From contig CAYTJV010000045.1 in the NCBI GenBank assembly GCA_964438165.1, positions 1 through 22,948 of the forward strand: 22,948 bases of DNA, read 5' to 3'. Origin of the DNA: an uncultured Planctomycetaceae bacterium (GTDB taxonomy: Bacteria > Planctomycetota > Planctomycetia > Pirellulales > Thermoguttaceae). The translations under genes were made by a program, and so were the position numbers. Shown here piece after piece: positions 2,955 to 17,002 of this stretch (positions are counted from its first letter, which is position 1; every line of letters starts with the position of its first letter). Under the pieces are notes generated by a model, which searched no databases, was not told the origin of the DNA, and worked only from the letters and a program-made list of their open reading frames with translations.

Positions 2955-4688
2955 ATGGCTCACCAGGATTCAGTCCCGACTCGGCCACAGGGAGGCGGAA
3001 CAGGGTTGCTGTCTCAGCACGGGCGCAACCTGGCGTGGTACGCGAGCGCCTGGGTGGCGCTTTTCATCGTGACGATCTTGCTCCACAGATCGCGCCGCGA
3101 GGCTGAAGTGGCGGCGACCGTTGTTCCCTCGCCTCCCGAATCCAGCACTCTCAAAGAGACCACTGTTTCCACTCGCGGGGACGAGGCGAAAGGCGATGAA
3201 CAGACCCAGAGCGACTGGCTGGGAAGCGGGCCCGTCGTCCAGATGCCTCCTCTGACCGAGCAGCGAGCGGCCATGCCGAGCGAAAACGAGCAGAAAACGG
3301 CCACCGCGTCTCTCCAACGGGACCAGGACGATCTCTTCGGGCGCAGATTCTCGGAGACAGAGCAGGAATACCGTGCGAGAGCGGCCGGGGGCTCGTACCA
3401 ATTGGCGACGCTGCTGAACCTCGACTCGCACCGTCGGTTTGTTCTTTTGAATCTGGCATGGCAGAACGCGGCTGTCAGCGGCGACGGCGCGCTTGCCCTC
3501 CGGGCCGCGGAGGACCTGACCGTGCAGTTTCGCTGGGATCCGATGAAGGCCAAGCTTCAAACCATCGAGCTTCTGGCAAAGTCCTACCGCGGCCGCGAGA
3601 ATTCCCGCAACGAAATAATCGCGACATTAATGAGTCAGCGCGACAAAGAAGAGGCCGCATTGGAGAGGCAGCGCGACAGAGAAAAGGCCGCGGCGAGCGC
3701 CTGGCCCCTGATGGCTTTCGTGGAAGAAGTGATGGGCGAGCGCGAGTACTATAACGCTCAGCAAGTCTGCAAATTAGCGGGCGATTTCAGTTACGAATCG
3801 TGGGACCAGCAAGCCCGTGAACGCTTCGCCACCCTGTCGGCACGGGTCGAGAAGGCCGTCGCCGAGCAGGCTGCTTTCCCGGAAGCGTTGGCATCGCTGG
3901 CAGAGAAAGCCCACGATCCGGAAGCCTCTTGGGTCGCAGGGCGCCACCTTTGCCTGGTCTTGGACAAGTGGCACGAGGGCCTTCCTTACCTGGCTCACGT
4001 CGCCGACAAGGACATTCGCGGCGCGGCGCTGCTCGAACTCGACCCCGCGCCGAAGAAGCCCCAGCAGCAAATCCTCTTGGGCGAAAAGTGGCGCCGTGCA
4101 TCCCAATCCCACGAAGGGATGGAGCGGGAATGCCTGATGCTCCGCGCCATCCTCTGGCACCGACGGGCCCGGTCCCGACTCGACGAGGGCCCGGTTCGAG
4201 GCAAGCTGGACCAGCGTCTGGAGGAGATGCTCCAGGAAATCGACCGACTCGCCGCGCTCCCACGCGTCTTTCCGCTGATCTATCCGCTGAGCAGGGTCGG
4301 GTACTGGAACCCCAAATTCGTCGCGCAGGAGCCGACAGTCCTGCACTGGGACATCACTCCTTTCGTCACTCTTTCAGGAAGATACGCAGTATGGCTCCAA
4401 TGCGGCAACGGCGCTCATCCCCTGCGGGTCGAGTGGGTGGTTCTCGGGCAGGACGGGAAAGACGGGAAGGAAATCAGCCGACACGTCAATCCTTCGGTCG
4501 CGGAGGGCGGCAAAGCGTGGCCTCAGTATACGATCGCGCTGGAGACTCCTGAGCCCGGCAAGCAATACGGCCTCTACGCTCGCGTCGAGGCAACCGGCAC
4601 GGCCCCGCACGGCTGTGTGCGGATGAAATACCTGGGTCCGCAGACGCCGGCTCCGTCGGCGCCCGGAGCGAGCGACACAAAACCTTAG
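2955..4688 (+). CDS. Hypothetical membrane-anchored protein (one N-terminal TM helix, charged coiled-coil segment, C-terminal globular region)
   Basis: A GAGGAG ribosome-binding site at 2941-2946 lies 8 nt before the ATG at 2955 (MAHQDSV…). A TM helix reads LAWYASAWVALFIVTILL. The ORF-track start at 2898 would overlap the STAS gene. No family is recognised. The gene ends 2 nt before the convergent gene at 4691. Confidence 0.6.
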   Translation: MAHQDSVPTRPQGGGTGLLSQHGRNLAWYASAWVALFIVTILLHRSRREAEVAATVVPSPPESSTLKETTVSTRGDEAKGDEQTQSDWLGSGPVVQMPPLTEQRAAMPSENEQKTATASLQRDQDDLFGRRFSETEQEYRARAAGGSYQLATLLNLDSHRRFVLLNLAWQNAAVSGDGALALRAAEDLTVQFRWDPMKAKLQTIELLAKSYRGRENSRNEIIATLMSQRDKEEAALERQRDREKAAASAWPLMAFVEEVMGEREYYNAQQVCKLAGDFSYESWDQQARERFATLSARVEKAVAEQAAFPEALASLAEKAHDPEASWVAGRHLCLVLDKWHEGLPYLAHVADKDIRGAALLELDPAPKKPQQQILLGEKWRRASQSHEGMERECLMLRAILWHRRARSRLDEGPVRGKLDQRLEEMLQEIDRLAALPRVFPLIYPLSRVGYWNPKFVAQEPTVLHWDITPFVTLSGRYAVWLQCGNGAHPLRVEWVVLGQDGKDGKEISRHVNPSVAEGGKAWPQYTIALETPEPGKQYGLYARVEATGTAPHGCVRMKYLGPQTPAPSAPGASDTKP

Positions 4689-4690
4689 CG

Positions 4691-6028
4691 TCAGGCTTCG
4701 ACGACCACGAATTCGCAGCCCGCGTCGGTCCAGGTATCGGGCGGCATTCGCTCCAAGGCGAGGCCCGCGCTTCTTAGACGTTCGATGGCCTTGTCGGCGC
4801 GGCCTTGCGGATCCAACAGGGCAAAGGGCCCGACTCCGGCGAACACGTCGAGCGGCTGGAGCGTGAACAGGGCCCGAATCCGCTCGATTCCCGGCGGGCT
4901 CCCGACGACCCACTCCCGGCTCTCGTCCGGTCCGTTCAGCCCCACCGGCGCGCCGGTCCGCAGCCGGTAGTTCTCCAACAGCACGTACACCTGCCCGCTC
5001 GTGCCCAGGTCGAGCAAGGTGAGATAACAGTCGCGGTCGGTCTGGGCGTTGAGCGTGAACCGCTCGCCGATGCGAAACCAATCGCGGCTGGTCCGCGGCA
5101 CGGTGACGATGTCCCGGCTGGTGGGCCGGTTGCTGCGATCGGTCCAAATCCTGCCCGAGAAGGTAGGCCGGGGCTGCGCGACGCGGTTGATGGCGTGGAC
5201 GAGCGCCTCGGGCTGACGCGACGAGTCGACCTGCTTCGCCTTTTGCGTAAAGGCGTCCTGGCGAACCGCCTCAGCGCAGAGTTTGCAGTGCCCCGGCACA
5301 CTCTCGTCCTCGTGTTTGCGGCAGACCGTCTTGCGGCAGCGGGAGCAGGCAAGCCCCTGGTCGGCCGCGACCGGGCGCCCGCACTGGCCGAACCCGCACG
5401 CCGTGCGCTGCTCCGCACCCGCCGGACGCAGGGCAATCGGCTCCCAGCGGCACTCCGGCGCGGAAGCGGCCTCGTTCCCGAGGCCGAAACTCAACAGGTC
5501 CTTCACGTCGCTGCCGTACATCTCCTTGAGCTGCGAGAAATCGAGATGGATTCCGCCTTCGATGCGGACGCCCGCGCCCTGGCGGTGTCCCTCTTCGTCG
5601 ATCCGCACGAAGAAACTGCGGTCCGGGCACTCGAACGCCACGCCCTCTTCGGGCTTGCCGGCGGGGGTGACGACCACCCGCAGCGTCTCGACGGGCAGGT
5701 CGCCCGCGATGCCCGGCCGAAAAGGGAAGCTCAGCACCAATGGCTCGCCCCGCCGGCCCAACCGGCAGTATTGCTCCAGTTCGCTCGGCTCCTGCTCCAC
5801 GTACTTGCCGCGCCCGTGCAGCAGGAGCCGCACGGTCACGTCGCAGTCCGCGTCGGCCACGCGGGTCGCGCGCAGGCGAAGCTGGCACAGGCTGCCCCGC
5901 ACGTGAGGCCGATGCGTCTCCACCTCGAGCACGACCTCCGCCGATGCGCCGAGCGGGCGCCCGCACTCGCTGCAAAACGACGCCCCCGGTTCGGGCACGG
6001 CTCCGCAATGACCGCACGCCAGGTCCAT
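4691..6028 (-). CDS. Zinc-ribbon protein with a DUF4384-like C-terminal domain (last gene of the minus-strand ESCRT-like operon)
   Basis: An AAGGAG ribosome-binding site precedes the ATG. The N-terminus has CxxC…CxxC (MDLACGHCGA…CSECG), with a second Cys cluster mid-protein (CGFGQCG…CSRCRKTVC…HCKLC). The C-terminus (DCYLTLLDLGTSGQVYVLLENYRLRTGAPVGLNG…) resembles DUF4384, which is often fused or adjacent to kinases and caspases. The DUF4384 call is from memory. Confidence 0.6.
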   Translation of the reverse strand: MDLACGHCGAVPEPGASFCSECGRPLGASAEVVLEVETHRPHVRGSLCQLRLRATRVADADCDVTVRLLLHGRGKYVEQEPSELEQYCRLGRRGEPLVLSFPFRPGIAGDLPVETLRVVVTPAGKPEEGVAFECPDRSFFVRIDEEGHRQGAGVRIEGGIHLDFSQLKEMYGSDVKDLLSFGLGNEAASAPECRWEPIALRPAGAEQRTACGFGQCGRPVAADQGLACSRCRKTVCRKHEDESVPGHCKLCAEAVRQDAFTQKAKQVDSSRQPEALVHAINRVAQPRPTFSGRIWTDRSNRPTSRDIVTVPRTSRDWFRIGERFTLNAQTDRDCYLTLLDLGTSGQVYVLLENYRLRTGAPVGLNGPDESREWVVGSPPGIERIRALFTLQPLDVFAGVGPFALLDPQGRADKAIERLRSAGLALERMPPDTWTDAGCEFVVVEA

Positions 6029-6040
6029 TGCGACTCTCCT

Positions 6041-7942
6041 TCACTGGAAGAACCGGTGTCCGCAATTGTCGCAGAACTTCGATCCGCTGGGGATCTGACG
6101 GTGGCAGGTCGGGCAGACGACTTGCGGACCCTGTTGCACAGGGCCGGGGGCGCCGGCCTTCGCGGCCGCCACGTCGGCCAGGCGGTCCATGCTTTGCCCG
6201 GCCATGGCCTGCACATCGCGGGCGTGCTCGCGCTCCTTGGCCGCCGCGGCTCCGGCCACCCGCTCCATCGAGCCCATCGCCTTTTCCATGACCCGCTCCA
6301 GCCGGTCGGCTTCGGATTCCTTGCCGGCGAGGATTTTTTCGTACAGGGCCTTGACCTCGGCGCTTGCCCCGGCCTGGACCTGGGCCTTGGCACGCTCGGC
6401 AATCGCCGCCGCCACCTGCGGCGAGTCCTTGGCCACCAGGGCCAGGATCTGGTCCGGGCTAAGGTCCTTCATCACCTCGGTTTTCTTCAGATCCGCCGCC
6501 AGCCGAGTCTGCTCCGCCTCGGAAAGGGCATGAATCCGCTCCAGCTCCCGCTTCGCCTCACGGTCCTTGGCCTCTTGCTCGCGGGCGATCCGCTGGGACT
6601 CCTCTTCGTGATCCAGCGCGACCTTCTTCTCGCGCAACCGCATACCCAATTCTGCCTTGCGTTCGACGATACGCACGTCGGCCTCGGCCTCGGCGATTCG
6701 CTCGTCGCGGCGGCCCTCGGCAACGCGTCGCTCGTGTTGTACCTTCTCCCAGTCGGCCTCCTGCCGGGCACGGAGATCATCCCGCCCGTACCGGATGCGG
6801 TTCTCCAACTCCGCGTCGGAAAGGGCGTGACGCTGGCGGAGCACGGCCAAGTCGTGCTCCAGATCGAGCTTCTCCAGCATGTGCCTCCGCGCCACATCCG
6901 CGTCTTCCCGCTTCTCGGTGAAGGTGCGCCGCAGTTCCTCCATTTCGTCGGCGCGGACGAGGTCCTTGAGGCCCAGCTCGTGCTCGGTCTGACGCACGAA
7001 ATCTTCGAGCTCCTTCGCCGACGAGAACTGATTCATGCGGTCCGCGGTGAGCGTTTCGCGCAGCCGGCGGTTGAGCGCTGCCCGGCGATCGGCGTCGTCG
7101 GCCCCTGCCTCGGCGAGGCAGGTTTCGCCGCGGCGATCGCGAAGGGCTTCGTAGGATCGGCACGCCACGTGCAACGACCTGAGCGCCACAAGCTCCAGGC
7201 CGCTGCGCCGCAGGGCAGGCTCGATCCGCTGTCGCAGGTCGTTTTCCAGCGCGGCCTTCCACTGTGGATCGGCATTGAGATCGGCAAGCGATGCCTCTTG
7301 GACGCGGGCCCGAACCGTGTCGGCGCACGCGCTGCGCACCAGGTCGGCCACCGCGGCCTTGGGGAGGCTCTCCCGGCCGTGCACCAGGTTGGTGAAAAAG
7401 GAGAGCGGGTCGGCCACGCGCACCACGACCTCGGCCGTCAGGTCGGCAACGACCTCTTCCCGGGTGCGGAGGTCCCGGTACTCAAGCCCCAGCGCGGTGT
7501 CGCCCGCGTCGACGAGGATCGCGCTCGCCGGCGCGGCGAGGTTGAGTCGGGCCGGCAGCCGGGCCAGGTCATAGTTCCCGGCGGAGACCACCGCGGCCAG
7601 CGCGCCGCGTTGAAACACGAGGGCCTGCGTGCCCGGCTCGACCACCAGACGCCGCCGGAACAGCCCGCGAAGGTCGGCGGCTTCGATCCGGCGGGCGAAC
7701 TCGTCGCCGGAGCGACTCCAACGGTTCAGGGCGTCGACCGGCGCCGGCTCGTCGTCGCTGCGGCCCGCGGAAGCGCCGCAATGGCTACACAACTTGGCGT
7801 CGGCCTTCAAGGGCTTACCGCAGGCGGCACACGTGCCCTGGCTGGAGGGAATGGGTCGGCCGCAGTGCGGACAAAAGGCCGCGCCCCAGCGGACCTCCTT
7901 GCCGCAATCGAAATGGGGACACTGGCGGGAGAGAATGCCCAT
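6041..7942 (-). CDS. Flotillin/SPFH (band-7)-like protein with N-terminal and C-terminal zinc ribbons and a long Glu/Arg/Ala-rich coiled coil
   Basis: The start is taken at the internal Met (MGILSRQCPHFDCG…), because the upstream extension is Arg/Trp-rich junk. The N-terminus has three CxxC pairs. An SPFH-like core reads VVEPGTQALVFQRGALAAVV…AILVDAGDTALGLEYRDLRTREEVVADLTAEVVVRVADPLSFFTNLV. A flotillin-like EA-rich coiled coil follows, and the C-terminus has CPTCH…CDNCG. It is a paralogue of the protein at 17005-18933. Confidence 0.6.
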   Translation of the reverse strand: MGILSRQCPHFDCGKEVRWGAAFCPHCGRPIPSSQGTCAACGKPLKADAKLCSHCGASAGRSDDEPAPVDALNRWSRSGDEFARRIEAADLRGLFRRRLVVEPGTQALVFQRGALAAVVSAGNYDLARLPARLNLAAPASAILVDAGDTALGLEYRDLRTREEVVADLTAEVVVRVADPLSFFTNLVHGRESLPKAAVADLVRSACADTVRARVQEASLADLNADPQWKAALENDLRQRIEPALRRSGLELVALRSLHVACRSYEALRDRRGETCLAEAGADDADRRAALNRRLRETLTADRMNQFSSAKELEDFVRQTEHELGLKDLVRADEMEELRRTFTEKREDADVARRHMLEKLDLEHDLAVLRQRHALSDAELENRIRYGRDDLRARQEADWEKVQHERRVAEGRRDERIAEAEADVRIVERKAELGMRLREKKVALDHEEESQRIAREQEAKDREAKRELERIHALSEAEQTRLAADLKKTEVMKDLSPDQILALVAKDSPQVAAAIAERAKAQVQAGASAEVKALYEKILAGKESEADRLERVMEKAMGSMERVAGAAAAKEREHARDVQAMAGQSMDRLADVAAAKAGAPGPVQQGPQVVCPTCHRQIPSGSKFCDNCGHRFFQ

Positions 7943-7994
7943 AGTCTCGTGCCTTTCACTGAGAAACGCTGAAGGACGGCCTGGAAAGGCCGTC

Positions 7995-8837
7995 TTACAC
8001 GATTTCTTCCATCTTGTCGAGCACCACCCAGTTGTATGCCAAGGCCGTGACCGCAGCCGCAACCAGCAGCAGGGCCGCCCAACCACGTTCCAGTTGGAAG
8101 CCCATCATGGCGTATGCGGCCGCGGTCCCCACGAAGGCGAGTCCCAAGAGCAACCCCAAGTTCACCGCGTTCGACTGGCGAGCCAAGGCTCGATGAAGCC
8201 ACGGCGCCAGCGCCAAGGGGAGCAGCAGGACCAGCGCCAGCCACGCCACCAATCGTATCGGCCAGGCGTAACTGGTGACCCTCGCGGCCGCCTGCGATCG
8301 CCCGCGATCGTGTACGACCTCGGCAGTCAGGCTCACCGGTTGTGATGGCTCGCGGGTCTCAACCAAGATCGCCTCCAGGACGGCTTCATCCCGATCGGTT
8401 CGGGCGGCCAGGCTGCGCACGCGGCCGGCCACCAAGTACTCGCTGTCGAGCCGACTGCCGGCCGCCGTGACGGCCGCCTCGAGGGCCAGTTCGTCGTTTT
8501 CGATGCCCAGCTCGCGCTTCACGTTTTCCCAGAGGGATGCCGGACGGACCGCGTATCGACCCGCGCGATCGATCGCCCGGCGCACGGCTTCCGTCACCAC
8601 GCCCGTGGGATCGCTTTCGAACCGGGCCACGACCAACGAGGGCCTTCCCGACGGCGCCGCGGGCAATCGCTCGGCAAGCTGCCGGGCTGCGTCCTCGACC
8701 AGGGCTCGGCGGGCAGGATCGAGCGGCAACGGACGGGAGCGGACCAGCATCCACCCTTGCGCGATCACGACCAGCACCACACCCAGCCGGGCCAACCCCG
8801 TGCCGGCGCGAATCAGTCGGCCGAGCCATCTGAACAT
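7995..8837 (-). CDS. Hypothetical polytopic membrane protein (N-terminal signal-anchor helix, soluble middle domain, about three C-terminal TM helices)
   Basis: The start is taken at MFRWLGRL (GGGAG ribosome-binding site 8 nt upstream). The ORF-track N-terminal extension would overlap the upstream gene. Hydrophobic segments read LARLGVVLVVIAQGW and WPIRLVAWLALVLLLPLALAPWL…LGLLLGLAFVGTAAAYAMMGF…ALLLVAAAVTALAY. Confidence 0.55.
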   Translation of the reverse strand: MFRWLGRLIRAGTGLARLGVVLVVIAQGWMLVRSRPLPLDPARRALVEDAARQLAERLPAAPSGRPSLVVARFESDPTGVVTEAVRRAIDRAGRYAVRPASLWENVKRELGIENDELALEAAVTAAGSRLDSEYLVAGRVRSLAARTDRDEAVLEAILVETREPSQPVSLTAEVVHDRGRSQAAARVTSYAWPIRLVAWLALVLLLPLALAPWLHRALARQSNAVNLGLLLGLAFVGTAAAYAMMGFQLERGWAALLLVAAAVTALAYNWVVLDKMEEIV

Positions 8838-8850
8838 GCTGTATGCTCCC

Positions 8851-9441
8851 CTACGGCTCCCTGCGCATTTCTTCCTCGATCCGCCGCAGCCCGTCGGAGA
8901 TCTGTCCGTCGTCGCCGGAGGCCTCGTCGGCAGCGGCCTCGGTGACCATCTGGTGGGCCAGTTCGCCGAGCTTCCGCTCGTCGAGATCGCGGGCGTCGAA
9001 GAGACTGCCGGCACTGGTTTCCATGGCCACCGAGAGGACTTCTTCGAGGGCCTCCGACTTCTCCACGGCGCGGGCCATTTTGGCCTGCACGTCGGCCACT
9101 TGCTCCGGCGTGGCGCCGCGGAGGATCGAGTTGGTCATCGCCAAAATGCTCTTCAGAAAATCGCCGGTGGCGGCGACCTCGTCGCGGCGCACGCCGAGCG
9201 TCTCCAGTTGCAGCAAGTACCGCTCCCAGCGGCTGACGTGCTCGCGAGCGCGCAGGACCGCCGCGGCCAGTTGCTCGAATTGCTCGCGGTCGCCCAGGCG
9301 GAGGGCCTGCTTGCCCAGTTGCCAGTAGCGCTGCTGCACCTCGCGGGCACTGCGCATGAACCGCTGGATGCGCGTGATCCCCTGGCGGATTTGGATTTTC
9401 GCCTCCAGCTCCCGCTGCTGCCTCGATTTGAACAGTCCCAT
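8851..9441 (-). CDS. ESCRT-III/CHMP/PspA-superfamily-like coiled-coil protein
   Basis: 197 aa from the internal Met. The N-terminus MGLFKSRQQRELEAKIQ… resembles eukaryotic CHMP (MGLFGK…) and PspA (MGIFSRF…) N-termini. The protein is predicted all-helical and charged. The acidic C-terminus ends in an MIM-like stretch, SDGLRRIEEEMRR. The ORF-track upstream extension translates the intergenic hairpin and was rejected. Confidence 0.55.
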   Translation of the reverse strand: MGLFKSRQQRELEAKIQIRQGITRIQRFMRSAREVQQRYWQLGKQALRLGDREQFEQLAAAVLRAREHVSRWERYLLQLETLGVRRDEVAATGDFLKSILAMTNSILRGATPEQVADVQAKMARAVEKSEALEEVLSVAMETSAGSLFDARDLDERKLGELAHQMVTEAAADEASGDDGQISDGLRRIEEEMRREP

Positions 9442-9463
9442 GGTCCGGTCATCTCCGATCCTT

Positions 9464-9524
9464 AGTAGCAGGCACACTCCGTGTGCCGTCCGCCGGCTAC
9501 GGCACACGGAGTGTGCCTACTACT
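9464..9524. promoter_or_regulatory. Nested-palindrome hairpin. The arms AGTAGCAGGCACACTCCGTGTGCCGT / ACGGCACACGGAGTGTGCCTACTACT are separated by 9 nt, and each arm carries a 17-bp self-palindrome GGCACAC-NNN-GTGTGCC. It spans the stop codon of the AAA ATPase and the 5' leader of the ESCRT-III-like gene.
   Basis: Read directly from the sequence. The ORF track shows the mirrored peptide TAHGVCLLL on both strands. Confidence 0.5.
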
Positions 9525-10683
9525 TTGCGCACAACGACTCATACCGCTTCAAGGTCTCCGGCGGCGTATCGGGCCGCAGTTTGGCCAGCGCCGACTCGAA
9601 GTCGTCCCAGCGGAGCGGGCGCGTGGCAAGCTGGTACTTGCTCAGATCGGCGTCGCCGCGGGCGACCCGCTCGACGAGCTTCGGGTTGGCGTCGCCGATC
9701 ATCGTTTCCACGGCCACGGCGGCCAGGTGGGCGAGCTGCCGACCGCTCAGCCCCTCCGACCGCGCCACGAGGCTCTCCAAAGGGAAGCTCAGCGTGTGTC
9801 CCCTCCGCGTCAAATGAATTTCCAGGATTTGCCGTCGAGCAGCAGGATCGGGAAGGGGCACGTAAACGCGGCGTCCGAAACGGCTCAGCGCCGCCGGGTC
9901 CATGAGCCAGGGGGTGTTGGTCGCGCCCAGGGTGAACACGGGCGGGCCGTCTCCGCTGGCAGCGACCCCGCTCAGCTCGGCCAAGAGCGTGGAGAGGACC
10001 TGGCGCTCGGCAGCGCCGGAGGAAAGCTCTCGCGAAGCGAACAGGGCATCGAGCTCGTCGATGAAGACCAGCGAGGGGGCCCGCTGGCGCGCGACCGCGT
10101 AGAGCGTGGCAACCAGCCGGGCCGATTCGCCAAACCACTTGGAGAGCACGGCCGCCGCGCCGACGTTGAAGAACGTGGCGCCCAGCCCGCGGGAAGCGGC
10201 CGCCGCCAGGAGCGACTTGCCCGTCCCCGGCGGACCGAACAACAGGATGTTGCGAATCGGGTCGATCCGCACGCCGGGCGGTTTCTCGGCCACGGCCAGC
10301 CCAAAGGCCAACTGGATCTGCCGCTTCGTCTCCTCCAGGCCGCCGATGTCCTCCCATCCCACCGCGGCCCGCATGATGAGGGCCTCGACCTGGCCTCGGA
10401 GCTCCTGGTCGCCAGACGCGGGTTGTGGGATTGGGCCGGACGGCGGCGCAGGTCGTTGCTCCGAGAGGCGCTGAGCGAGGCTTTCCAGGTTGCGTACACG
10501 GGCCGTTCGCCGCGATCGTTCGGCGGGGCTGACCGCGTACTGGGCATACGCCCGTGCCAGCCCCGCCGCCTCGCGGTAGACGGAGGCGGCTCGTCCCGCC
10601 TCCCCGCCGGCGCGAAGCTCATCGGCCCGCCGGAGGGTCTTGCGAAGCGACTCGTCGATGCTGCGGCTCAAGTCAACGTTCAT
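9520..10683 (-). CDS. Vps4-like AAA+ ATPase (MIT-like N-terminal domain plus a meiotic-clade AAA domain)
   Basis: The start is taken at MNVDLSRS, with GAGAGGAG immediately upstream. The N-terminal ~75 aa form a three-helix MIT-like pattern (SIDESLRKTLRRADELRAGGEAGRAASVYREAAGLARAYAQYA…RSRRTARVRNLESLAQRL) that aligns by eye with the yeast and human Vps4 MIT domain. Walker A is GPPGTGKS and Walker B is LVFIDELD. The meiotic-clade signature ATNTPWLMDPAALSRFGRRVYVPLPD matches the Vps4 stretch ATNIPW.LD.A.RRRFE.RIYIPLPD. The C-terminal helix …DFESALAKLRPDTPPETLKRY is Vps4-like. Confidence 0.75.
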   Translation of the reverse strand: MNVDLSRSIDESLRKTLRRADELRAGGEAGRAASVYREAAGLARAYAQYAVSPAERSRRTARVRNLESLAQRLSEQRPAPPSGPIPQPASGDQELRGQVEALIMRAAVGWEDIGGLEETKRQIQLAFGLAVAEKPPGVRIDPIRNILLFGPPGTGKSLLAAAASRGLGATFFNVGAAAVLSKWFGESARLVATLYAVARQRAPSLVFIDELDALFASRELSSGAAERQVLSTLLAELSGVAASGDGPPVFTLGATNTPWLMDPAALSRFGRRVYVPLPDPAARRQILEIHLTRRGHTLSFPLESLVARSEGLSGRQLAHLAAVAVETMIGDANPKLVERVARGDADLSKYQLATRPLRWDDFESALAKLRPDTPPETLKRYESLCAK

Positions 10684-10694
10684 CGCACTCCTCT

Positions 10695-10773
10695 CGTAGC
10701 TTGGCTCTCCAGAGCCGAGCAAATACGGTCAACATCGCGGAAAAATCGCTCGGCTCTGGAGAGCCAAGCTACG
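10695..10773. promoter_or_regulatory. Nested-palindrome hairpin. The arms CGTAGCTTGGCTCTCCAGAGCCGAGC … GCTCGGCTCTGGAGAGCCAAGCTACG have a ~28-nt loop, and each arm contains the self-palindrome GGCTCT-CC-AGAGCC. It occupies the junction between the Snf7-like stop and the ATPase ribosome-binding site and start.
   Basis: Read directly from the sequence. It has the same two-level palindrome architecture as 9464-9524 and 755-817. Confidence 0.5.
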
Positions 10774-11380
10774 GAGAGAGGACCTTTTCGACGCGCTGGG
10801 CCGCCTCGGCAACGCCCTCCGGCCGGCCGGCTTCTTCGGCGGCGCGGGCGTCTTCCATGGCGGCGACGATGGCTGCCAGGTCGGCATCCGGCTCGGCCTG
10901 CTCCGCGGCCTGCACCGCACCGTCCAGGGAGCCCAGCAGGCTGGTGAACTTCTCCATCTCGAACTGGCCTGCCACGGAGGCCCGCTCGACGTAGGCCGTC
11001 AGCTCCTCGACCGACATTCGAGAGATCACCGAGCCGACTGTGAGCTGCTGCAAGAGCGACATATTCTCCTTGATCTGCAAGAGCCCGTCGACGATCCGCA
11101 GGTGCTTGTGGAAGAACGCGAGCTGCTGGCCTTTGGCGCGGGCGGCGCTATCGAGCTGCTTGATCTTCCGCGCCAGGGCCAGCCGCTGCCGCGAGCTCGG
11201 GTCGTCCTTGCCCTTCATGAATGACTCGTGTTTGCGGGCTTCCAGCTCGTCGGTCTCGCGGCTGACGCGCCGCTCCAACTGCTCCAGGCGGATCTTTTCG
11301 TGCTTCAGCTCGTCGATCGTGAGCCGGTCGATGCCCTTGGGGCTGCCCAGCAAATTCCGCAGACGGTCAAGCAGCAACAT
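10769..11380 (-). CDS. Snf7/ESCRT-III-like coiled-coil protein (first gene of the operon)
   Basis: 203 aa, with a GGAG ribosome-binding site 7 nt before the ATG. The protein is all-helical and charged, with a heptad-like …KIRLEQLERRVSRETDELEARKHESFMKGKDD…RQRLALARKIKQLDSAARAKGQQLAFFHKHLRIVDGLLQI… that resembles Snf7/CHMP4 core helices. The C-terminal tail is acidic. This is weaker than the call for the downstream MGLF protein. Confidence 0.45.
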   Translation of the reverse strand: MLLLDRLRNLLGSPKGIDRLTIDELKHEKIRLEQLERRVSRETDELEARKHESFMKGKDDPSSRQRLALARKIKQLDSAARAKGQQLAFFHKHLRIVDGLLQIKENMSLLQQLTVGSVISRMSVEELTAYVERASVAGQFEMEKFTSLLGSLDGAVQAAEQAEPDADLAAIVAAMEDARAAEEAGRPEGVAEAAQRVEKVLSP

Positions 11381-11400
11381 CGCAACGCTCCTGCATCCGC

Positions 11401-11433
11401 AAACTTCCGAAGTCTTCGAGACTTCGGAAGTTT
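11401..11433. repeat. Copy 2 of the 33-bp palindromic element (AAACTTCCGAAGTCTTCGAGACTTCGGAAGTTT), lying between the kinase stop (11436) and the Snf7-like start (11380)
   Basis: An exact core match to copy 3 and the reverse-complement orientation of copy 1. It is followed by TTTTG on the plus strand. Confidence 0.85.
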
Positions 11434-11435
11434 TG

Positions 11436-13721
11436 TTACCCCTTCTTATACAACACCGTGCCGACGTCTTTCATCGACTCGCAGACGCACAGGCCCTCGG
11501 CCGCGAGGATGCGGCAGACCTGGTCCGCTGCCTTGCGGCTGATCCCCAGTTGCTCCACGAGCGTCGCCAGGGCAATCGAAGCGTGCTCGGCGAAATGCCG
11601 CCCGATCCATTGCCGCGCCCGCTCCAGCACGGCCGCGCTGACGTCGGCAGAGAACGCCTCGCGCCATGCCGCCAGACGCTCATCCGTTTCCGCCCAGCGG
11701 AAACGCGCTCGATCGCGGTCGTAGAGCACGACGCTCACCAGCCGGTCGCGGAAGGGCCGCGGCCCCGCGCCGCTGGCCATCTGGAGGGCCTCGTCCGTCC
11801 ATCCGGTCGGGCTGGCGAGGATGACCAAACGCCACGTTTTTTCGTCGGCCGCCTGGCGCGCGATCCGATTGAGCAACGACTCCAGTTCCGTCGCGGCGAC
11901 CGGCTGATCGTCGTAACCTTCGGCGGCGAAGCGGCCGGCGTGCAGCACGCTTCGGGCCTCGACCACCACGCGGGCCGTGGTTTTCCACAGCCCGCGCTGC
12001 CGCACCTCGTACACCATTCGGTCCCCCGACGGGCCGTGAATTCCCGCACGGCGCGACGCGTCCGACACGGCCCCGGCCGCGCTCGAGTCGTCATCCGCGG
12101 CCCTTCGGGTGCGCCGCTGGGAAAAGTCGCCCACGGAAATCACGGCCTGCCGCACCGGGTCCACCACCTCGGAGACCTCCGCGAGCGCGTTCTCCACGAC
12201 ACGGAAAAACGTCTCCTCGGCCAATTCCGCATCCGCAGCGGAAACGGCGGGCAGGGTGGCGGCCTGCGCGGGGGCTGGCTTCTGCTCGACCACTTCGGCA
12301 GGATCGCGGGGCAAGTCGCGGGCAACCGGCGGCGGGCTGGCCGCTGGCGCCGCATGCGCGCGGCAGCGCCGCACCTTCCCCGCTCGCCAACAGGCAGAGC
12401 ATATCGATGCCCCGCAGACCTCGCAGGTCCCCGCACTGCTGAGCTTTGAGAGCATGGGCTTGCCGCACGCCGCGCAGCGGTCGAACGACGCATTCCCACT
12501 CGGCCGTCCCGCCTCAACGGCGCGAACTCGCTGTTCGGGCACTCCGGGAGTCTGAAGCGGCAGGGTGGCATCGTGTCCGGCCAGGTACGCGTCGATGGCC
12601 TGAATGAAGTCCTCGGCCGTCTGGTACCGCTGCTGACGCTCGCGCGCCATGGCGCGGCGGATCATGTCGCCCAGCCGGCGCGGCACCGCGGGGTTGAGCT
12701 GGCAGGCGTCGGGCGGATCCTCCTCGCGGATCCGCCGGATCACGACGTACGGATCCGATCCCGCAAACGGCACCGCCCCCACGAGCATCTCGAACAGCAT
12801 CGTCCCCACGGAGAACAAGTCGCTCCGGCCGTCGAGGTCGCGCGTCCCGGCAGCCTGCTCAGGCGACATGTAGCTCGGGCTCCCCAGGACGGTTCCCTCC
12901 ATGGTCTGTTGGCAGGCATCGGCCATGCCGCGGGCCAGCCCGAAGTCGGCCAGCTTCGCCGTCCCCGTGGCGTCTTCCAGGATCACGTTGCCCGGCTTGA
13001 CGTCGCGATGGATCACGCCTTGCGCGTGCGCGTGGCCCAGGCCGGCGAGGACCTGGCGACACAGGGCCAGCGCCGCCGGCGGGTCGAGGCGGCCCTCTTC
13101 GGCGATCCGCGAGGCCAGCGAGCGGCCCTCGACGTACTCCATGTCGATATAGGGCATATCGTTCTCGATCCCCACCGAGTGTACCGCCACCACGCTCGGG
13201 TGCTTGAGTTTGGCCGCGGCGCGGGCCTCGCGGAGAAAGCGTTCGCGGGCTTCGGGGTCGTGGAGCCGCGAGGGGGCCATGAGCTTGAGGGCCACGGTCC
13301 GCTGGAGCGTTCGGTCGACGGCCTGGAGCACGACGCCCATCGCCCCCATGCCCACCAGCGCGATCACGTCGTAGGAGCCTAAGCTGGCGATGTACTTCGG
13401 GTCTTGGGGCAAGTCCAACAACAGGCCGCCGGCCACGACAACCCGGTCGCCGCGGACCTCCACGTGCGGAAATCGTGGGAAGTGCGCGGCGCGGATGGCC
13501 TCGAAATCGGCGTCGTGGGCCGGAGCGTCCTGGCCGATCAAGGCGGCCAGCTCGTCGGTCGGCCCCATGGCCTCGTCGAAGCGCTTTCGGCAAAGGGCGC
13601 AGCCGTCGAGGTGTTTCTGCACCTGGGCCTCTTCGTAAGCCCTGGCCAGTCCGGCCGCCACGCGGGTCAGGACGTCGGGTGAGGGGCACTGCGGGGAATG
13701 AGCCGACTGGGGTTCAGACAT
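11436..13721 (-). CDS. Fusion of an anti-sigma factor (ZAS motif) with a Hanks-type Ser/Thr protein kinase, plus a C-terminal zinc-ribbon and unknown domain
   Basis: The start is taken at MSEPQS…, 2 nt after the sigma-factor stop. The N-terminus carries HLDGCALC (an H-x3-C-x2-C zinc anti-sigma motif). Kinase motifs are ALKLM, HRDVKPGNVIL, DFGLAR and SPSYMSPEQ. A later CAACG…CEVCGASICSAC forms a zinc ribbon. The C-terminal ~250 aa are of unknown family. Confidence 0.8.
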   Translation of the reverse strand: MSEPQSAHSPQCPSPDVLTRVAAGLARAYEEAQVQKHLDGCALCRKRFDEAMGPTDELAALIGQDAPAHDADFEAIRAAHFPRFPHVEVRGDRVVVAGGLLLDLPQDPKYIASLGSYDVIALVGMGAMGVVLQAVDRTLQRTVALKLMAPSRLHDPEARERFLREARAAAKLKHPSVVAVHSVGIENDMPYIDMEYVEGRSLASRIAEEGRLDPPAALALCRQVLAGLGHAHAQGVIHRDVKPGNVILEDATGTAKLADFGLARGMADACQQTMEGTVLGSPSYMSPEQAAGTRDLDGRSDLFSVGTMLFEMLVGAVPFAGSDPYVVIRRIREEDPPDACQLNPAVPRRLGDMIRRAMARERQQRYQTAEDFIQAIDAYLAGHDATLPLQTPGVPEQRVRAVEAGRPSGNASFDRCAACGKPMLSKLSSAGTCEVCGASICSACWRAGKVRRCRAHAAPAASPPPVARDLPRDPAEVVEQKPAPAQAATLPAVSAADAELAEETFFRVVENALAEVSEVVDPVRQAVISVGDFSQRRTRRAADDDSSAAGAVSDASRRAGIHGPSGDRMVYEVRQRGLWKTTARVVVEARSVLHAGRFAAEGYDDQPVAATELESLLNRIARQAADEKTWRLVILASPTGWTDEALQMASGAGPRPFRDRLVSVVLYDRDRARFRWAETDERLAAWREAFSADVSAAVLERARQWIGRHFAEHASIALATLVEQLGISRKAADQVCRILAAEGLCVCESMKDVGTVLYKKG

Positions 13722-14301
13722 CGATCTGCTCCACCGCTTCACGGAGCTTGGCCAGCACGCGCGACTTGCCCACGTACACGTTGCCGACGGTCGTCTGCAA
13801 TTGTTCCGCAACCGTTTCCGGCGGGATCCCGTTGAGCACCGAGCGGCGGAAGGCCTCCCACGTGAGCGGCTGCACGGCCGCGCGCACCCGCTTCATGGCG
13901 ATCTCCAACACCCGGCGCCGATGCTCCTCCTCCACCCACGCCTCCACGGCCTGGCCGGAATCGGCAATCCCGGCGACGATCCGAACGTTGTCCGACCCGC
14001 CCGGCGCCGACGGCTTGCGGGCCTGTCCGTGGAAGTGGCGATACGCGCGGTGGCGGGCGACCGTGCTGAGCCAAGCGCGGAACGACTTGCTCGGATCGTA
14101 CTCGAACGGCTTGCGCGCGATGCGGTTCATCACGATCTGCATCACATCCTGCTGCAAGTCGAGGGCGTCCTGGTACGCCACGCCCATCCGCAACAGGACC
14201 CGCAACACCAGCGGCCCATACAACTCCACGAACTCCTGCCAACTCGCCTGGTCGCCGAGATTCCGCACGCGCAACAAGAGACTGGGCCGAGTTCTTTCCA
14301 C
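13714..14301 (-). CDS. ECF (group IV sigma-70) RNA polymerase sigma factor
   Basis: Region 2 and region 4 motifs read …RPSLLLRVRNLGDQASWQEFVELYGPLVLRVLLRMG…DLQQDVMQIVMNRI… and …VLEIAMKRVRAAVQPLTWEAFRRSVLNGIPPETVAEQLQTTVGNVYVGKSRVLAKLRE. The start is proposed at GTG 14301 (VERTRPSLL, with GGAAGG 8 nt upstream). An in-frame ATG at 14463 would add an Arg/Cys/Gly-rich leader and is less likely. The gene is translationally coupled to the kinase gene. Confidence 0.7.
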   Translation of the reverse strand: MERTRPSLLLRVRNLGDQASWQEFVELYGPLVLRVLLRMGVAYQDALDLQQDVMQIVMNRIARKPFEYDPSKSFRAWLSTVARHRAYRHFHGQARKPSAPGGSDNVRIVAGIADSGQAVEAWVEEEHRRRVLEIAMKRVRAAVQPLTWEAFRRSVLNGIPPETVAEQLQTTVGNVYVGKSRVLAKLREAVEQIDV

Positions 14302-14684
14302 CCCGGGCGCCTTCCAGCCGTTCGGGCGAGTTGCTCTCAGAGGCTGCCCGGAAACGGGGCCGGGCCCCCTACATCGTGTGCGAGGTCGAGCCCCGACACA
14401 CAACCGGGAGCCAGTCCCCGTTTCCGAACCGTCTCTCACTTCCTTCCCGCAAAGCGCGATCATTCTAACCGACCCAGACCTGTATTTGCAGGGGGTGCGT
14501 TCACCTGCCGCTTCCGCGTCGGCACGTTCCGAAGAGCCATGCAACGATGACTAGCCCGGGAAGTGAAGAATCTTACACGAAAAACCTGGGAATGGCGTGG
14601 GAGCGGACTGCCCCCAGCGGCCGAGGAGCGGCAAGACAGGGGGGAGGCGAGACGCCGCCAAGCCAGAAGCAAGGAATCGCTCGC

Positions 14685-16924: not shown

Positions 16925-17002
16925 TTCAGGGTTCGGGGTTCGGGGGTCGGGATTCCCGTTCAAGCGTCTCCTCCGAGTCCTGAACCCTGAACCCCGAACC
17001 CT
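16925..17002. promoter_or_regulatory. Imperfect inverted repeat built from tandem G-tract heptamers (AGGGTTCGGGGTTCGGGGGTCGGGATTC … GAGTCCTGAACCCTGAACCCCGAACCCT). It lies between the SPFH-paralogue stop and the kinase start and is a candidate terminator, attenuator or G-quadruplex element.
   Basis: Read directly from the sequence. There are four G-runs of 3-5 on one arm and the complementary C-runs on the other, with an ~18-nt loop. Confidence 0.4.

Follow-up and report, generated by a model that had tools for sequence, protein, structure and literature searches.

The stretch analysed here, a whole contig of 22,948 nucleotides from an uncultured Planctomycetaceae bacterium (CAYTJV010000045.1; hereafter the window), carries on its minus strand an operon in which a gene for a 203-aa protein (10769-11380) is followed by an AAA+ ATPase gene (9520-10683) and a gene for a 196-aa protein (8851-9441). 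The ATPase (387 aa, identical to P0001) matches Pfam AAA together with a weak Vps4_C match, and the 196-aa protein gives a weak match to Snf7 (ESCRT-III-like; PF03357, E = 3.6e-4, below the gathering score) that its orthologues share. Searching PDB sequences with the Snf7-like protein returned nothing, and comparison of the 203-aa and 196-aa proteins found nothing. The two junctions that flank the ATPase gene are occupied by inverted repeats, referred to here as J1 (10695-10773, between the 203-aa and ATPase genes) and J2 (9464-9524, between the ATPase and Snf7-like genes).

A previous sequence-only reading had described both junctions as long inverted repeats in which each arm is itself a smaller palindrome, and this description proved correct. 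An inverted-repeat search gave two 26-nt arms for J1 (10695-10720 and 10748-10773; 100% complementary, 27-nt spacer) and two 26-nt arms for J2 (9464-9489 and 9499-9524; 96% complementary, 9-nt spacer), built around GGCTCT-CC-AGAGCC and GGCACAC-TCC-GTGTGCC, respectively. In J2, unit A (9465-9489, plus strand) reads GTAG-CA-GGCACAC-TCC-GTGTGCC-GT, matching the family consensus GTAG[C/T]A GGCACAC TCC GTGTGCC GT, and unit B (9499-9523, minus strand) reads GTAG-TA-GGCACAC-TCC-GTGTGCC-GT; each comprises GTAG plus 2 nt, a 7-bp stem and a TCC loop, and the spacer between the repetitive extragenic palindrome (REP) units of the dimer is 13 nt (gtccgccggctac). In J1, unit A (10696-10720, plus strand) reads GTAG-CTT-GGCTCT-CC-AGAGCC-GAG-C and is paired with unit B (10748-10772, minus strand). 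Here the CTT and GAG flanks extend the stem to 8-9 bp including one G-T pair, so that the hairpin follows GTAG directly (0 nt) when they are counted as stem, and the loop is CC or TCCA. As had also been claimed, one J2 arm contains the ATPase stop codon (9520-9522), which is the TAG of the GTAG tag of unit B; likewise, the 203-aa gene ends at the TAG of J1 unit B (10769-10771).

A third dimer of the same head-to-head form lies at 751-819, outside the operon and ~200 nt downstream of a holA fragment. Its 27-nt arms are 100% complementary, its unit (GTAG-G-GCAAGCTG-C-CAGCTTGC-C) has GTAG plus 0-1 nt and a stem of 7-9 bp, and the same unit is found again in an IMG/VR contig (L244). All six arms of J1, J2 and the 751-819 element start with GTAG, their tags pointing outward, and in each the tag is followed within 0-3 nt by a GC-rich stem of 6-9 bp with a short TCC- or GCC-containing loop (CC in J1). 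It is this arrangement, two inverted units with GTAG outward, that gives rise to the palindrome of palindromes. A published search rule for REPs requires GTAG or GTGG to precede, by 0-2 nt, a stem of 7-20 bp with a loop of 2-5 nt (PMC6006769), and in six of the six window arms the tag stands 0-2 nt 5′ of the hairpin. Their stems and loops also lie within the ranges typical of GTAG-REPs, namely GC-rich stems of 5-13 bp and loops of mostly 2-5 nt. The shared GTAG start, the adjacent stem and the outward tags together correspond to the published definition of a GTAG-REP head-to-head dimer. Over the whole window there are nine GTAG-tagged hairpins, compared with 0.56 expected from Markov-shuffled sequence. 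A possible degenerate single unit (GTAG-GGGGCC-C-GGCCCC; 14356-14372, minus strand) is listed tentatively; it sits within an imperfect inverted repeat upstream of a sigma-factor gene. No target-site duplication was found at J1, J2 or 751-819, the flanks being inverted complements and not direct repeats, and no gene for a REP-associated tyrosine transposase (RAYT) was found in the 23-kb window. Rfam 15 gave no match in the window at the gathering score; at a relaxed threshold, the only matches were sub-threshold ones to miRNA-precursor hairpins.

On the mRNA (minus) strand the two elements are predicted to form very stable structures, with folding energies of −53.8 kcal/mol for J2 (z = −8.7) and −68.4 kcal/mol for J1 (z = −10.2) that were equalled by none of 200 shuffles in either case. 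The idea that each could switch between one long stem-loop and two local hairpins did not survive a comparison of energies: the long hairpin is favoured by 28.5 kcal/mol in J2 and 36.8 kcal/mol in J1. The suggestion that the second hairpin overlaps the ribosome-binding site and start of the ATPase gene stands in part. A Shine-Dalgarno-like run (GAGAGGAG; 10688-10695, minus strand) adjoins J1 at its CTAC end; position 10695, the first base of that run, is also where the perfect repeat stops, and the ATG (10681-10683) is 12 nt outside. In the minimum-energy fold the run pairs with an upstream CUCUC, and it is only this extended helix that sequesters the RBS. The pairing is specific to the window, as nothing comparable occurs in L001, the closest relative (described below).

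These properties would be compatible with one reading of J1 and J2, namely an operon-specific cis-regulatory RNA that sets expression of the 203-aa, ATPase and Snf7-like genes by processing, mRNA stabilisation, attenuation or RBS occlusion. Both elements lie within an operon of co-directional genes, each overlaps a stop codon, and their RNA stems are very stable; J1 adjoins the ATPase RBS, which its extended helix covers, and there is a run of five U after the first local J1 hairpin. In E. coli, moreover, REPs stabilise upstream mRNA and modulate expression within operons (cited in PMC3733652). The same first local hairpin (unit B on the mRNA, followed by GAUUUUUCC), together with the GC-rich stems, could alternatively indicate intrinsic transcription terminators or attenuators placed between the genes. 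However, a U-tract is absent after both long hairpins and after the J2 hairpins, the spacers of other dimers in the families vary and contain no conserved T-run, and terminator-like matches in the region are at the level expected from shuffled sequence (2 found, 1.7 expected). We regard terminators as very improbable, and the same count weighs against the cis-regulatory reading, as does the placement of the elements: that two of three dimers should lie in adjacent junctions of ~16 is expected by chance in ~35% of cases by a combinatorial estimate, and the third dimer displays an identical architecture outside the operon.

Within the window J1 and J2 are represented by one copy each of their families, and it is from other genomes that their multi-copy status is established. 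A genome scan with the pattern GTAGNNGGCACACNNNGTGTGCC gave at least 118 genome stretches with the J2 unit, nearly all from Planctomycetota or Poribacteria. Positions not fixed by the pattern hardly varied: among the matches listed, they read CA or TA before the stem, TCC (129 of 171) or GCC (34 of 171) in the loop, and then GT. The 25-nt unit GTAG-YA-GGCACAC-TCC-GTGTGCC-GT is near-identical in Pirellulales, Gemmatales, Planctomycetales, Brocadiales, Phycisphaerae and Poribacteria. Among the matches listed there are 91 single units, 31 head-to-head dimers, one tail-to-tail dimer and a few tandem arrays; one 44-kb contig holds at least 14 units, and several of the loci belong to single MAGs. 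The 13-nt spacer of J2 belongs to a variant, gtccgccgg(c/t)tac, that is common to the window and to contigs L025, L067 (both Thermoguttaceae) and L072, and is present in L012 in reverse complement, while other dimers of the family have spacers of 5-121 nt. The J1 unit was found in at least 120 metagenome stretches, with 17 head-to-head dimers vs 1 among the matches listed. J1 and J2 are representatives of two different, dispersed REP families, a known class of small mobile repeats.

The two families show a preference for the 3′ ends of genes, where they overlap stop codons. In 31 of the 175 J2-family units listed, an upstream frame open for 100 codons or more ends at the TAG of GTAG, with a sharp peak at this position. 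This preference belongs to the repeat class in general and is not specific to the ATPase operon. The tag itself is not confined to the families that were searched for, since with the searched family removed GTAG is still the most enriched 4-mer beside perfect hairpins in the Planctomycete loci (65 observed, 10 expected). Tandem copies in L083, L028 and L065 were considered as CRISPR-like arrays and rejected, as they have periods of 40-48 nt and their 'spacers' are conserved; a named Poribacteria or planctomycete RNA motif was also suspected and set aside, with no Rfam match on these three arrays. Stems within the J2 family differ by compensatory changes (e.g., GGCACAT/ATGTGCC and GGCACGC/GCGTGCC). 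The earlier proposal that the shared architecture reflects selection on structure can be retained insofar as the architecture is real and the structure constrained, but the constraint acts at the level of the repeat family.

Orthologous operons allow the history of the two junctions to be followed. In the five more distant ones (AAA proteins 61-66% identical) the junctions measure 0-41 and 15-25 nt, and none contains a large hairpin. The closest (L001, 83%) has elements at both junctions, but at the J1 site the element is a 28-nt single hairpin that leaves the RBS unpaired, and a three-unit REP cluster occupies a junction that has no element in the window. Local selection on the long hairpin would account for the loop pattern of L001 as well, but its other copy of the family likewise has the GCC loop, which suggests genome-wide homogenisation instead. 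The C-terminus of the ATPase reads ...ESLCAK* in the window and L001 and ...ESW* in most other orthologues listed, and the 203-aa protein, truncated by J1, lacks 7-10 C-terminal residues relative to six of six orthologues. The comparison shows that insertion of the elements at the 3′ ends of the 203-aa and ATPase genes took place in an ancestor shared by the window and its 83% relative, and that J1 and J2 now supply both TAG stops, having altered both upstream C-termini. A composite mobile unit with J1 and J2 bracketing the ATPase gene was considered and discarded, as the gene keeps its operon position in the element-free orthologues.

An operon-specific regulator is accordingly unlikely: the large hairpins are absent from five orthologues, the 83% orthologue has a single hairpin in place of J1 and an unpaired RBS, each sequence belongs to a family with more than 100 copies elsewhere, and a third copy of the architecture lies outside the operon. 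The sequence-only reading had named, as findings that would speak against it, orthologous junctions with no conserved structure or junction sequences that are dispersed repeats with no positional preference; this is largely, although not strictly, the picture obtained, with five orthologues bare and the repeats dispersed, but with the elements kept in the 83% orthologue and a real preference for 3′ ends. The orthologues also bear on whether the palindromes arose by chance or as assembly artefacts. Metagenome assemblers can create hairpin chimeras, and L001 itself contains what resembles one, a perfect inverted repeat of 86 nt that surrounds a run of N (7093-7281), which was set aside as a probable assembly artefact. 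In the window, however, the elements are free of N, an independent metagenome has them at the orthologous site, their families are present in hundreds of independent assemblies, long-read chromosomes among them, and none of 200 shuffles folds as well. The likelihood of such an origin is negligible.

A link to a transposase was sought in ~1.5 Mb of fetched loci with a regular expression for HUH...Y motifs, a crude screen that misses divergent genes and that yielded two candidates only. The product of the first, on a metagenome contig (L193), scores above the threshold of the NCBIfam model REP_Tyr_transpos (NF047646; 83.5 bits, cut-off 80). This RAYT gene lies between J1-type REPs and takes its own stop codon from the TAG of a REP. 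The second, a RAYT-like gene in L025, lies 770 nt from a J2-type dimer and scores 76.9 bits, below the cut-off; it has no Pfam match and is flanked by different inverted repeats that are not J2-type. In the fetched loci no RAYT was found flanked on both sides by J2-type REPs.

This association also bears on the last of the roles proposed initially, in which the 17-bp inner palindromes would serve a dimeric DNA-binding protein as paired operators; candidates would be a transcription factor or a nucleoid protein that is conserved among Planctomycetes. The perfect symmetry and the length of the palindromes would suit operators, the J2 unit is near-invariant across the phylum as the site of a conserved protein would be, and the REPs and BIMEs of E. 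coli are bound by IHF, gyrase and Pol I. Nevertheless, operators fit poorly with units that occur in hundreds of copies, mostly at gene 3′ ends and not in promoter regions, with their TAG often the stop codon of the upstream gene, in tandem arrays or with spacers of 5-121 nt. Compensatory stem changes maintain the hairpin, not a duplex site read base by base; a GTAG tag that is polar and unpaired, together with an asymmetric TCC loop, points to recognition of a single-stranded hairpin; and the repeats are associated with a RAYT. We consider paired operators highly improbable.

We conclude with high confidence that J1 and J2 are head-to-head dimers of GTAG-tagged REPs (REPINs), and not regulators built for the operon. 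From published REP/RAYT biochemistry, HUH/Y1 RAYTs would recognise GTAG and the hairpin on single-stranded DNA and mobilise the elements, and such recognition of the hairpin would explain why the architecture is constant despite the varying stem sequence. In the operon transcript, each element would be expected to fold into one very stable long stem-loop, and any effect on the operon may be a by-product, either as a barrier to 3′-5′ exonucleases or as a processing site, to which partial RBS occlusion or attenuation could be added at J1. The effects on RNase processing or mRNA stability that had been proposed may plausibly exist but would be incidental, and the elements do not appear to be designed as stoichiometry switches.

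The near-invariance of J2 across classes of the phylum and in Poribacteria exceeds what is usually reported for selfish REPINs and could mean a host function. The 25-nt unit might then be an ancient element kept by the host, as a site for a conserved, domesticated RAYT or other host factor, and the copies flanking the ATPase gene might have been co-opted and tune the ESCRT-III/Vps4-like module, a scenario that we judge distinctly unlikely.

Identification of J1 and J2 as REP dimers has direct consequences for annotation: they should be labelled REP/REPIN repeats, not operon regulators, and the insertions should be seen as the source of the stop codons and C-termini that the two upstream genes now have. 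It leaves the understanding of gene regulation as it was. The two GTAG-REP families occur very widely among uncultured Planctomycetota and Poribacteria, with a REPtron for one of the two, and the data extend a class documented mostly in Proteobacteria.

The closest known systems are the GTAG-REPs (Di Nocera, De Gregorio & Rocco 2013, PMC3733652), which include SMAG of Stenotrophomonas and GTAG-20 and GTAG-21 of Rhodopirellula baltica. They share with the window elements a terminal GTAG, a 6-9-bp stem and a 2-4-nt loop, and with the J1 and J2 families the predominance of GTAG-outward dimers, tandem head-to-tail dimers being rare in the class, and the presence of several families per genome. According to that article, REP dimers can fold as two hairpins or one large stem-loop, and GTAG-REPs sit between unidirectional or convergent ORFs and supply TAG stops to those that flank them; J1 and J2 likewise lie near the upstream 3′ end between unidirectional ORFs, with the TAG stop taken from GTAG. 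GTAG-REPs are reported there from Planctomycetes, R. baltica having several families and many tyrosine transposases (PMC3733652). The strings GGCACAC-TCC and GGCTCT-CC do not occur in the supplement of that article, and the distribution of the J2 25-nt unit across several planctomycete classes and Poribacteria is wider than the breadth that could be confirmed from it.

REPIN-RAYT systems (Bertels & Rainey 2011, PMC3116915; Nunvar et al. 2010, PMC2817692; E. coli TnpA-REP, PMC3479197 and PMC8266576) are similar to J1 and J2 in that two inverted REPs and a spacer form a long hairpin with a GTAG guide beside it. The RAYT of L193, flanked by J1-type REPs, forms a 'REPtron' as in these systems, and one J2 dimer variant recurs across contigs together with its 13-nt spacer, as might be expected if the whole dimer replicates. 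Unlike the J2 family, classic REPINs are species- or genus-specific and mostly described in Gammaproteobacteria, and the spacers of the J2 family (5-121 nt) are by comparison highly variable. BIME and REP elements in E. coli operons (e.g., malEFG) resemble J1 and J2 in lying between co-transcribed genes with a stem-loop a few nt from the upstream stop. Their effects have been shown by experiment, whereas those of J1 and J2 are only inferred, and BIMEs use Y and Z REP types and bind IHF or gyrase. Finally, MITEs are likewise small, non-autonomous, dispersed, hairpin-forming and intergenic, but J1, J2 and the 751-819 element are much shorter and have neither target-site duplications nor DDE-type insertion-sequence ends; the GTAG tag and RAYT link point instead to an HUH/Y1 single-strand pathway.

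The genes around the two elements, called from GC3 and Pfam, all lie on the minus strand: an ECF-type sigma factor (13714-14544), a Ser/Thr kinase (11436-13811), a 203-aa protein (10769-11380), an AAA+ ATPase with a weak Vps4_C match (9520-10683), a 196-aa protein with a weak Snf7 match (8851-9441), a 339-aa protein (7995-9014), an SPFH/zinc-ribbon protein (6041-8086) and a DUF4384 protein (4691-6028). Element J1 (10695-10773) separates the 203-aa and ATPase genes, and J2 (9464-9524) the ATPase and Snf7-like genes. The sequence-only reading had described both as long inverted repeats, and the repeat finder bears this out, with 26-nt arms in J2 (9464-9489/9499-9524, 96% complementary, 9-nt spacer) and in J1 (10695-10720/10748-10773, 100% complementary, 27-nt spacer); the smaller palindromes described within each arm are also present. 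As it had also proposed, one hairpin covers the ATPase stop codon (9520-9522, within a J2 arm). The claim that the other covers the ATPase ribosome-binding site and start codon holds only in part: the boundary of J1 falls one base inside the GAGAGGAG ribosome-binding run (10688-10695), reaching only its first base, and overlap with the start codon is incorrect because that codon lies 12 nt away.

RNA folding of the coding (minus) strand gave −53.8 kcal/mol for J2 (z = −8.7) and −68.4 kcal/mol for J1 (z = −10.2); in neither case did any of 200 dinucleotide shuffles reach this stability. The suggestion that each transcript might be bistable, folding alternatively as two local hairpins, is contradicted by the energies for the same RNAs (−25.3 versus −53.8 kcal/mol for J2; −31.6 versus −68.4 kcal/mol for J1). 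The predicted equilibrium population is the long hairpin only; the local hairpins could exist transiently during transcription at most.

Repetitive extragenic palindromes (REPs) are defined by a GTAG tag next to a short GC-rich hairpin, and a pair of inverted units whose tags face outward is called a "head-to-head" REP dimer (REPIN). A whole-window scan revealed that 751-819 holds a third dimer built in the same way (arms of 27 nt, 100% complementary, core GGCAAGCTG-C-CAGCTTGCC), outside the operon and downstream of a holA fragment; its unit recurs in an IMG/VR contig (L244, 8475-8497), beside a related palindrome. All six arms of the three elements open with GTAG directly 5′ of the small hairpin, and each element therefore reads GTAG...CTAC. 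Across the window, GTAG with a perfect hairpin no more than 4 nt downstream occurs nine times, against 0.56 expected. We consider it very probable that J1 and J2 are head-to-head GTAG-REP dimers, and they come from two dispersed families.

A scan of the J2 pattern GTAGNNGGCACACNNNGTGTGCC over 185,579 species-representative genomes returned at least 118 stretches. Nearly all the matches listed are from Planctomycetota (Pirellulales, Gemmataceae, Thermoguttaceae, Planctomycetaceae, Kuenenia and Tepidisphaeraceae) or Poribacteria. In the 171 units of these matches, the free positions are near-invariant (CA/TA after GTAG and GT after the hairpin), which makes the unit a polar 25-mer; the loop is TCC in 129 and GCC in 34. 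Such invariance across a whole phylum and Poribacteria is the one mildly unusual point. The matches listed comprise 91 single units, 31 head-to-head dimers against one tail-to-tail, plus a few tandem arrays, with dimer spacers of 5 to 121 nt (mode 13 nt); the 13-nt spacer of J2 itself recurs in Thermoguttaceae contigs. For J1, pattern GTAGNNNGGCTCTCCAGAGCC matched at least 120 stretches in metagenomes, including 17 head-to-head dimers among the matches listed, in which the three bases flanking each side of the core covary, with some G-T pairs (GAC/GTC, CAT/GTG, CTT/GAG). Related units carry compensatory stem variants (GGCACAT/ATGTGCC, GGCACGC/GCGTGCC, GGCTCAC/GTGAGCC), and beside perfect hairpins in planctomycete loci, with the searched family removed, GTAG is the most enriched 4-mer (65 observed versus 10 expected).

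Several other arrangements were observed. J2-type REPs are dense in viral-classified contigs (L249-L266, IMGVR_UViG_3300031576_000108 and others), one 44-kb IMG/VR contig holding at least 14 units; these are either misclassified host contigs or planctomycete phages or prophages with REPs. A Pirellulales contig (L065) bears three copies of a ~165-nt composite (1410-1672, 3716-3882, 6143-6307) of a J2-type REP, a ~120-nt conserved spacer and an inverted REP, which is a long REPIN or a MITE-like derivative. Same-orientation tandem arrays of the J2-type unit occur on a Poribacteria chromosome and a Pirellulaceae contig (L028, 717-780 and 3513-3779; L083, 3930-4072); a CRISPR-like reading was rejected, as the inter-unit sequence is conserved and the periods are 40-88 nt. 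A further GTAG-REP family, GGACGGATT-nn-CAATCCGTCC, forms at L001 3425-3511 a cluster of three units with GTAG...CTAC as its bounds, and is also found at L001 9266-9292 and in a Pirellulales MAG (L006, 1133).

The window also holds other intergenic structures. An imperfect long hairpin at 16925-17002 (arms 22-28 nt, 82-86% complementary), between two minus-strand genes, consists of short repeats resembling GGGTTCG and, lacking GTAG tags, is of a different kind. The 14-bp perfect hairpin AACTTCCGAAGTCT-cga-AGACTTCGGAAGTT (590-620), after the holA fragment, with an A-run before and TTTG after, looks like a terminator. Upstream of the sigma-factor gene, an imperfect inverted repeat (14339-14436, 31-nt arms, 77% complementary) contains a possible degenerate GTAG unit (14356-14372, minus strand).

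The operon is conserved across several lineages: six loci carry orthologues of it (L001, L004 and L245-L248), in which the order of the window (4691-14544, minus strand) is conserved: ECF sigma factor, Ser/Thr kinase, ~205-aa protein, AAA+ ATPase, 196-aa Snf7/ESCRT-III-like protein (weak match), ~280-340-aa protein, SPFH/Band-7 protein with zinc ribbons, and DUF4384 protein. In some relatives a second AAA+ gene is present, likewise matching Vps4_C. In Planctomycetes the operon may represent an ESCRT-III/Vps4-like module for membrane remodelling; the Snf7 matches of the 196-aa protein and its orthologues fall under the Pfam gathering score, and a PDB sequence search with this protein gave no match.

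Measured from upstream stop codon to next start codon, the J1 and J2 gaps are 85 and 78 nt in the window, with dimers at both. In L001 (AAA 83% identical), the J1 gap is 36 nt and contains a 28-nt single GTAG...CTAC hairpin homologous to one arm of the window dimer, and the 93-nt J2 gap contains a dimer at the same site, with a spacer longer by 19 nt and a matched change in both loops (GCC/GGC versus TCC/GGA). Between its kinase gene and 208-aa gene lies a three-unit REP cluster; the same junction is empty in the window. In the other five (AAA 61-66% identical), gaps of 0-41 nt (J1) and 15-25 nt (J2) hold no large hairpin. With junction contents differing in this way, the elements are lineage-specific insertions, variable even between close relatives. 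Separately, an 86-nt perfect inverted repeat around a run of N (L001, 7093-7281) is probably an assembly artefact, not a biological hairpin.

The insertions reshaped the C-termini of both upstream proteins. Stopped by the TAG of GTAG (10769-10780 region), the 203-aa protein finishes with ...VLSP* and is 7-10 residues shorter than each of its six orthologues. The ATPase, stopped by the TAG of AAAGTAG (9520-9531 region), finishes with ...ESLCAK* both here and in L001, versus ...ESW* in most other orthologues listed. Of 175 family units among the matches listed, 31 have the TAG of GTAG as the stop of an upstream frame that is open for 100 codons or more, with a sharp peak at this offset.

Selection on structure, as the sequence-only reading had proposed, is real, but acts on the repeat family. 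By analogy with E. coli biochemistry, the structure would most plausibly be kept across the family through recognition of hairpin and GTAG tag by REP-associated tyrosine transposases (RAYTs). There is no indication of an operon-specific device: the repeats are dispersed, and the elements are absent from the L004 and L245-L248 junctions. Neither long hairpin is followed by a U-tract. Five U residues do come after the first local hairpin of J1, but terminator-like matches in this region are as frequent as shuffled sequence predicts. The spacers of other J1-family members are not conserved. That two of three dimers fall in adjacent junctions, among ~16 gene junctions, has by our own estimate a chance of ~1 in 3. 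REPs in E. coli are known to affect mRNA decay, processing and translation, and similar effects here, including on ATPase translation, would be possible by-products.

No RAYT gene was found within the window. In L193, a protein scoring 83.5 bits (cut-off 80) for the NCBIfam "REP-associated tyrosine transposase" is encoded between J1-type REPs, its own stop codon formed by the GTAG of one, an arrangement that reads as a classical "REPtron". In L025, a J2-type dimer has a RAYT-like gene (76.9 bits, just under the cut-off) 770 nt away, and the immediate flanks of this gene are inverted repeats unlike the J2 type. On this Thermoguttaceae contig, two inverted copies of Rfam Acido-Lenti-1 (4269-4313, minus; 4416-4460, plus), both above the gathering score, lie ~1-1.5 kb from the RAYT-like gene.

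Rfam has no family for the J1 and J2 repeats, and their family strings are absent from the supplement of PMC3733652. In that paper, Di Nocera et al. (2013) describe REP families tagged with GTAG in over 80 species, the PVC group included; Rhodopirellula baltica has several of them, together with "a plethora" of tyrosine transposases, and the elements sit between unidirectional or convergent ORFs, near the upstream 3′ end, and their GTAG termini often supply the TAG stop codon (PMC3733652). Quentin et al. (2018) predict REPs by the same structural rule (PMC6006769). Every feature of J1 and J2 reported here falls within the published descriptions of GTAG-REPs (PMC3733652, PMC6006769).
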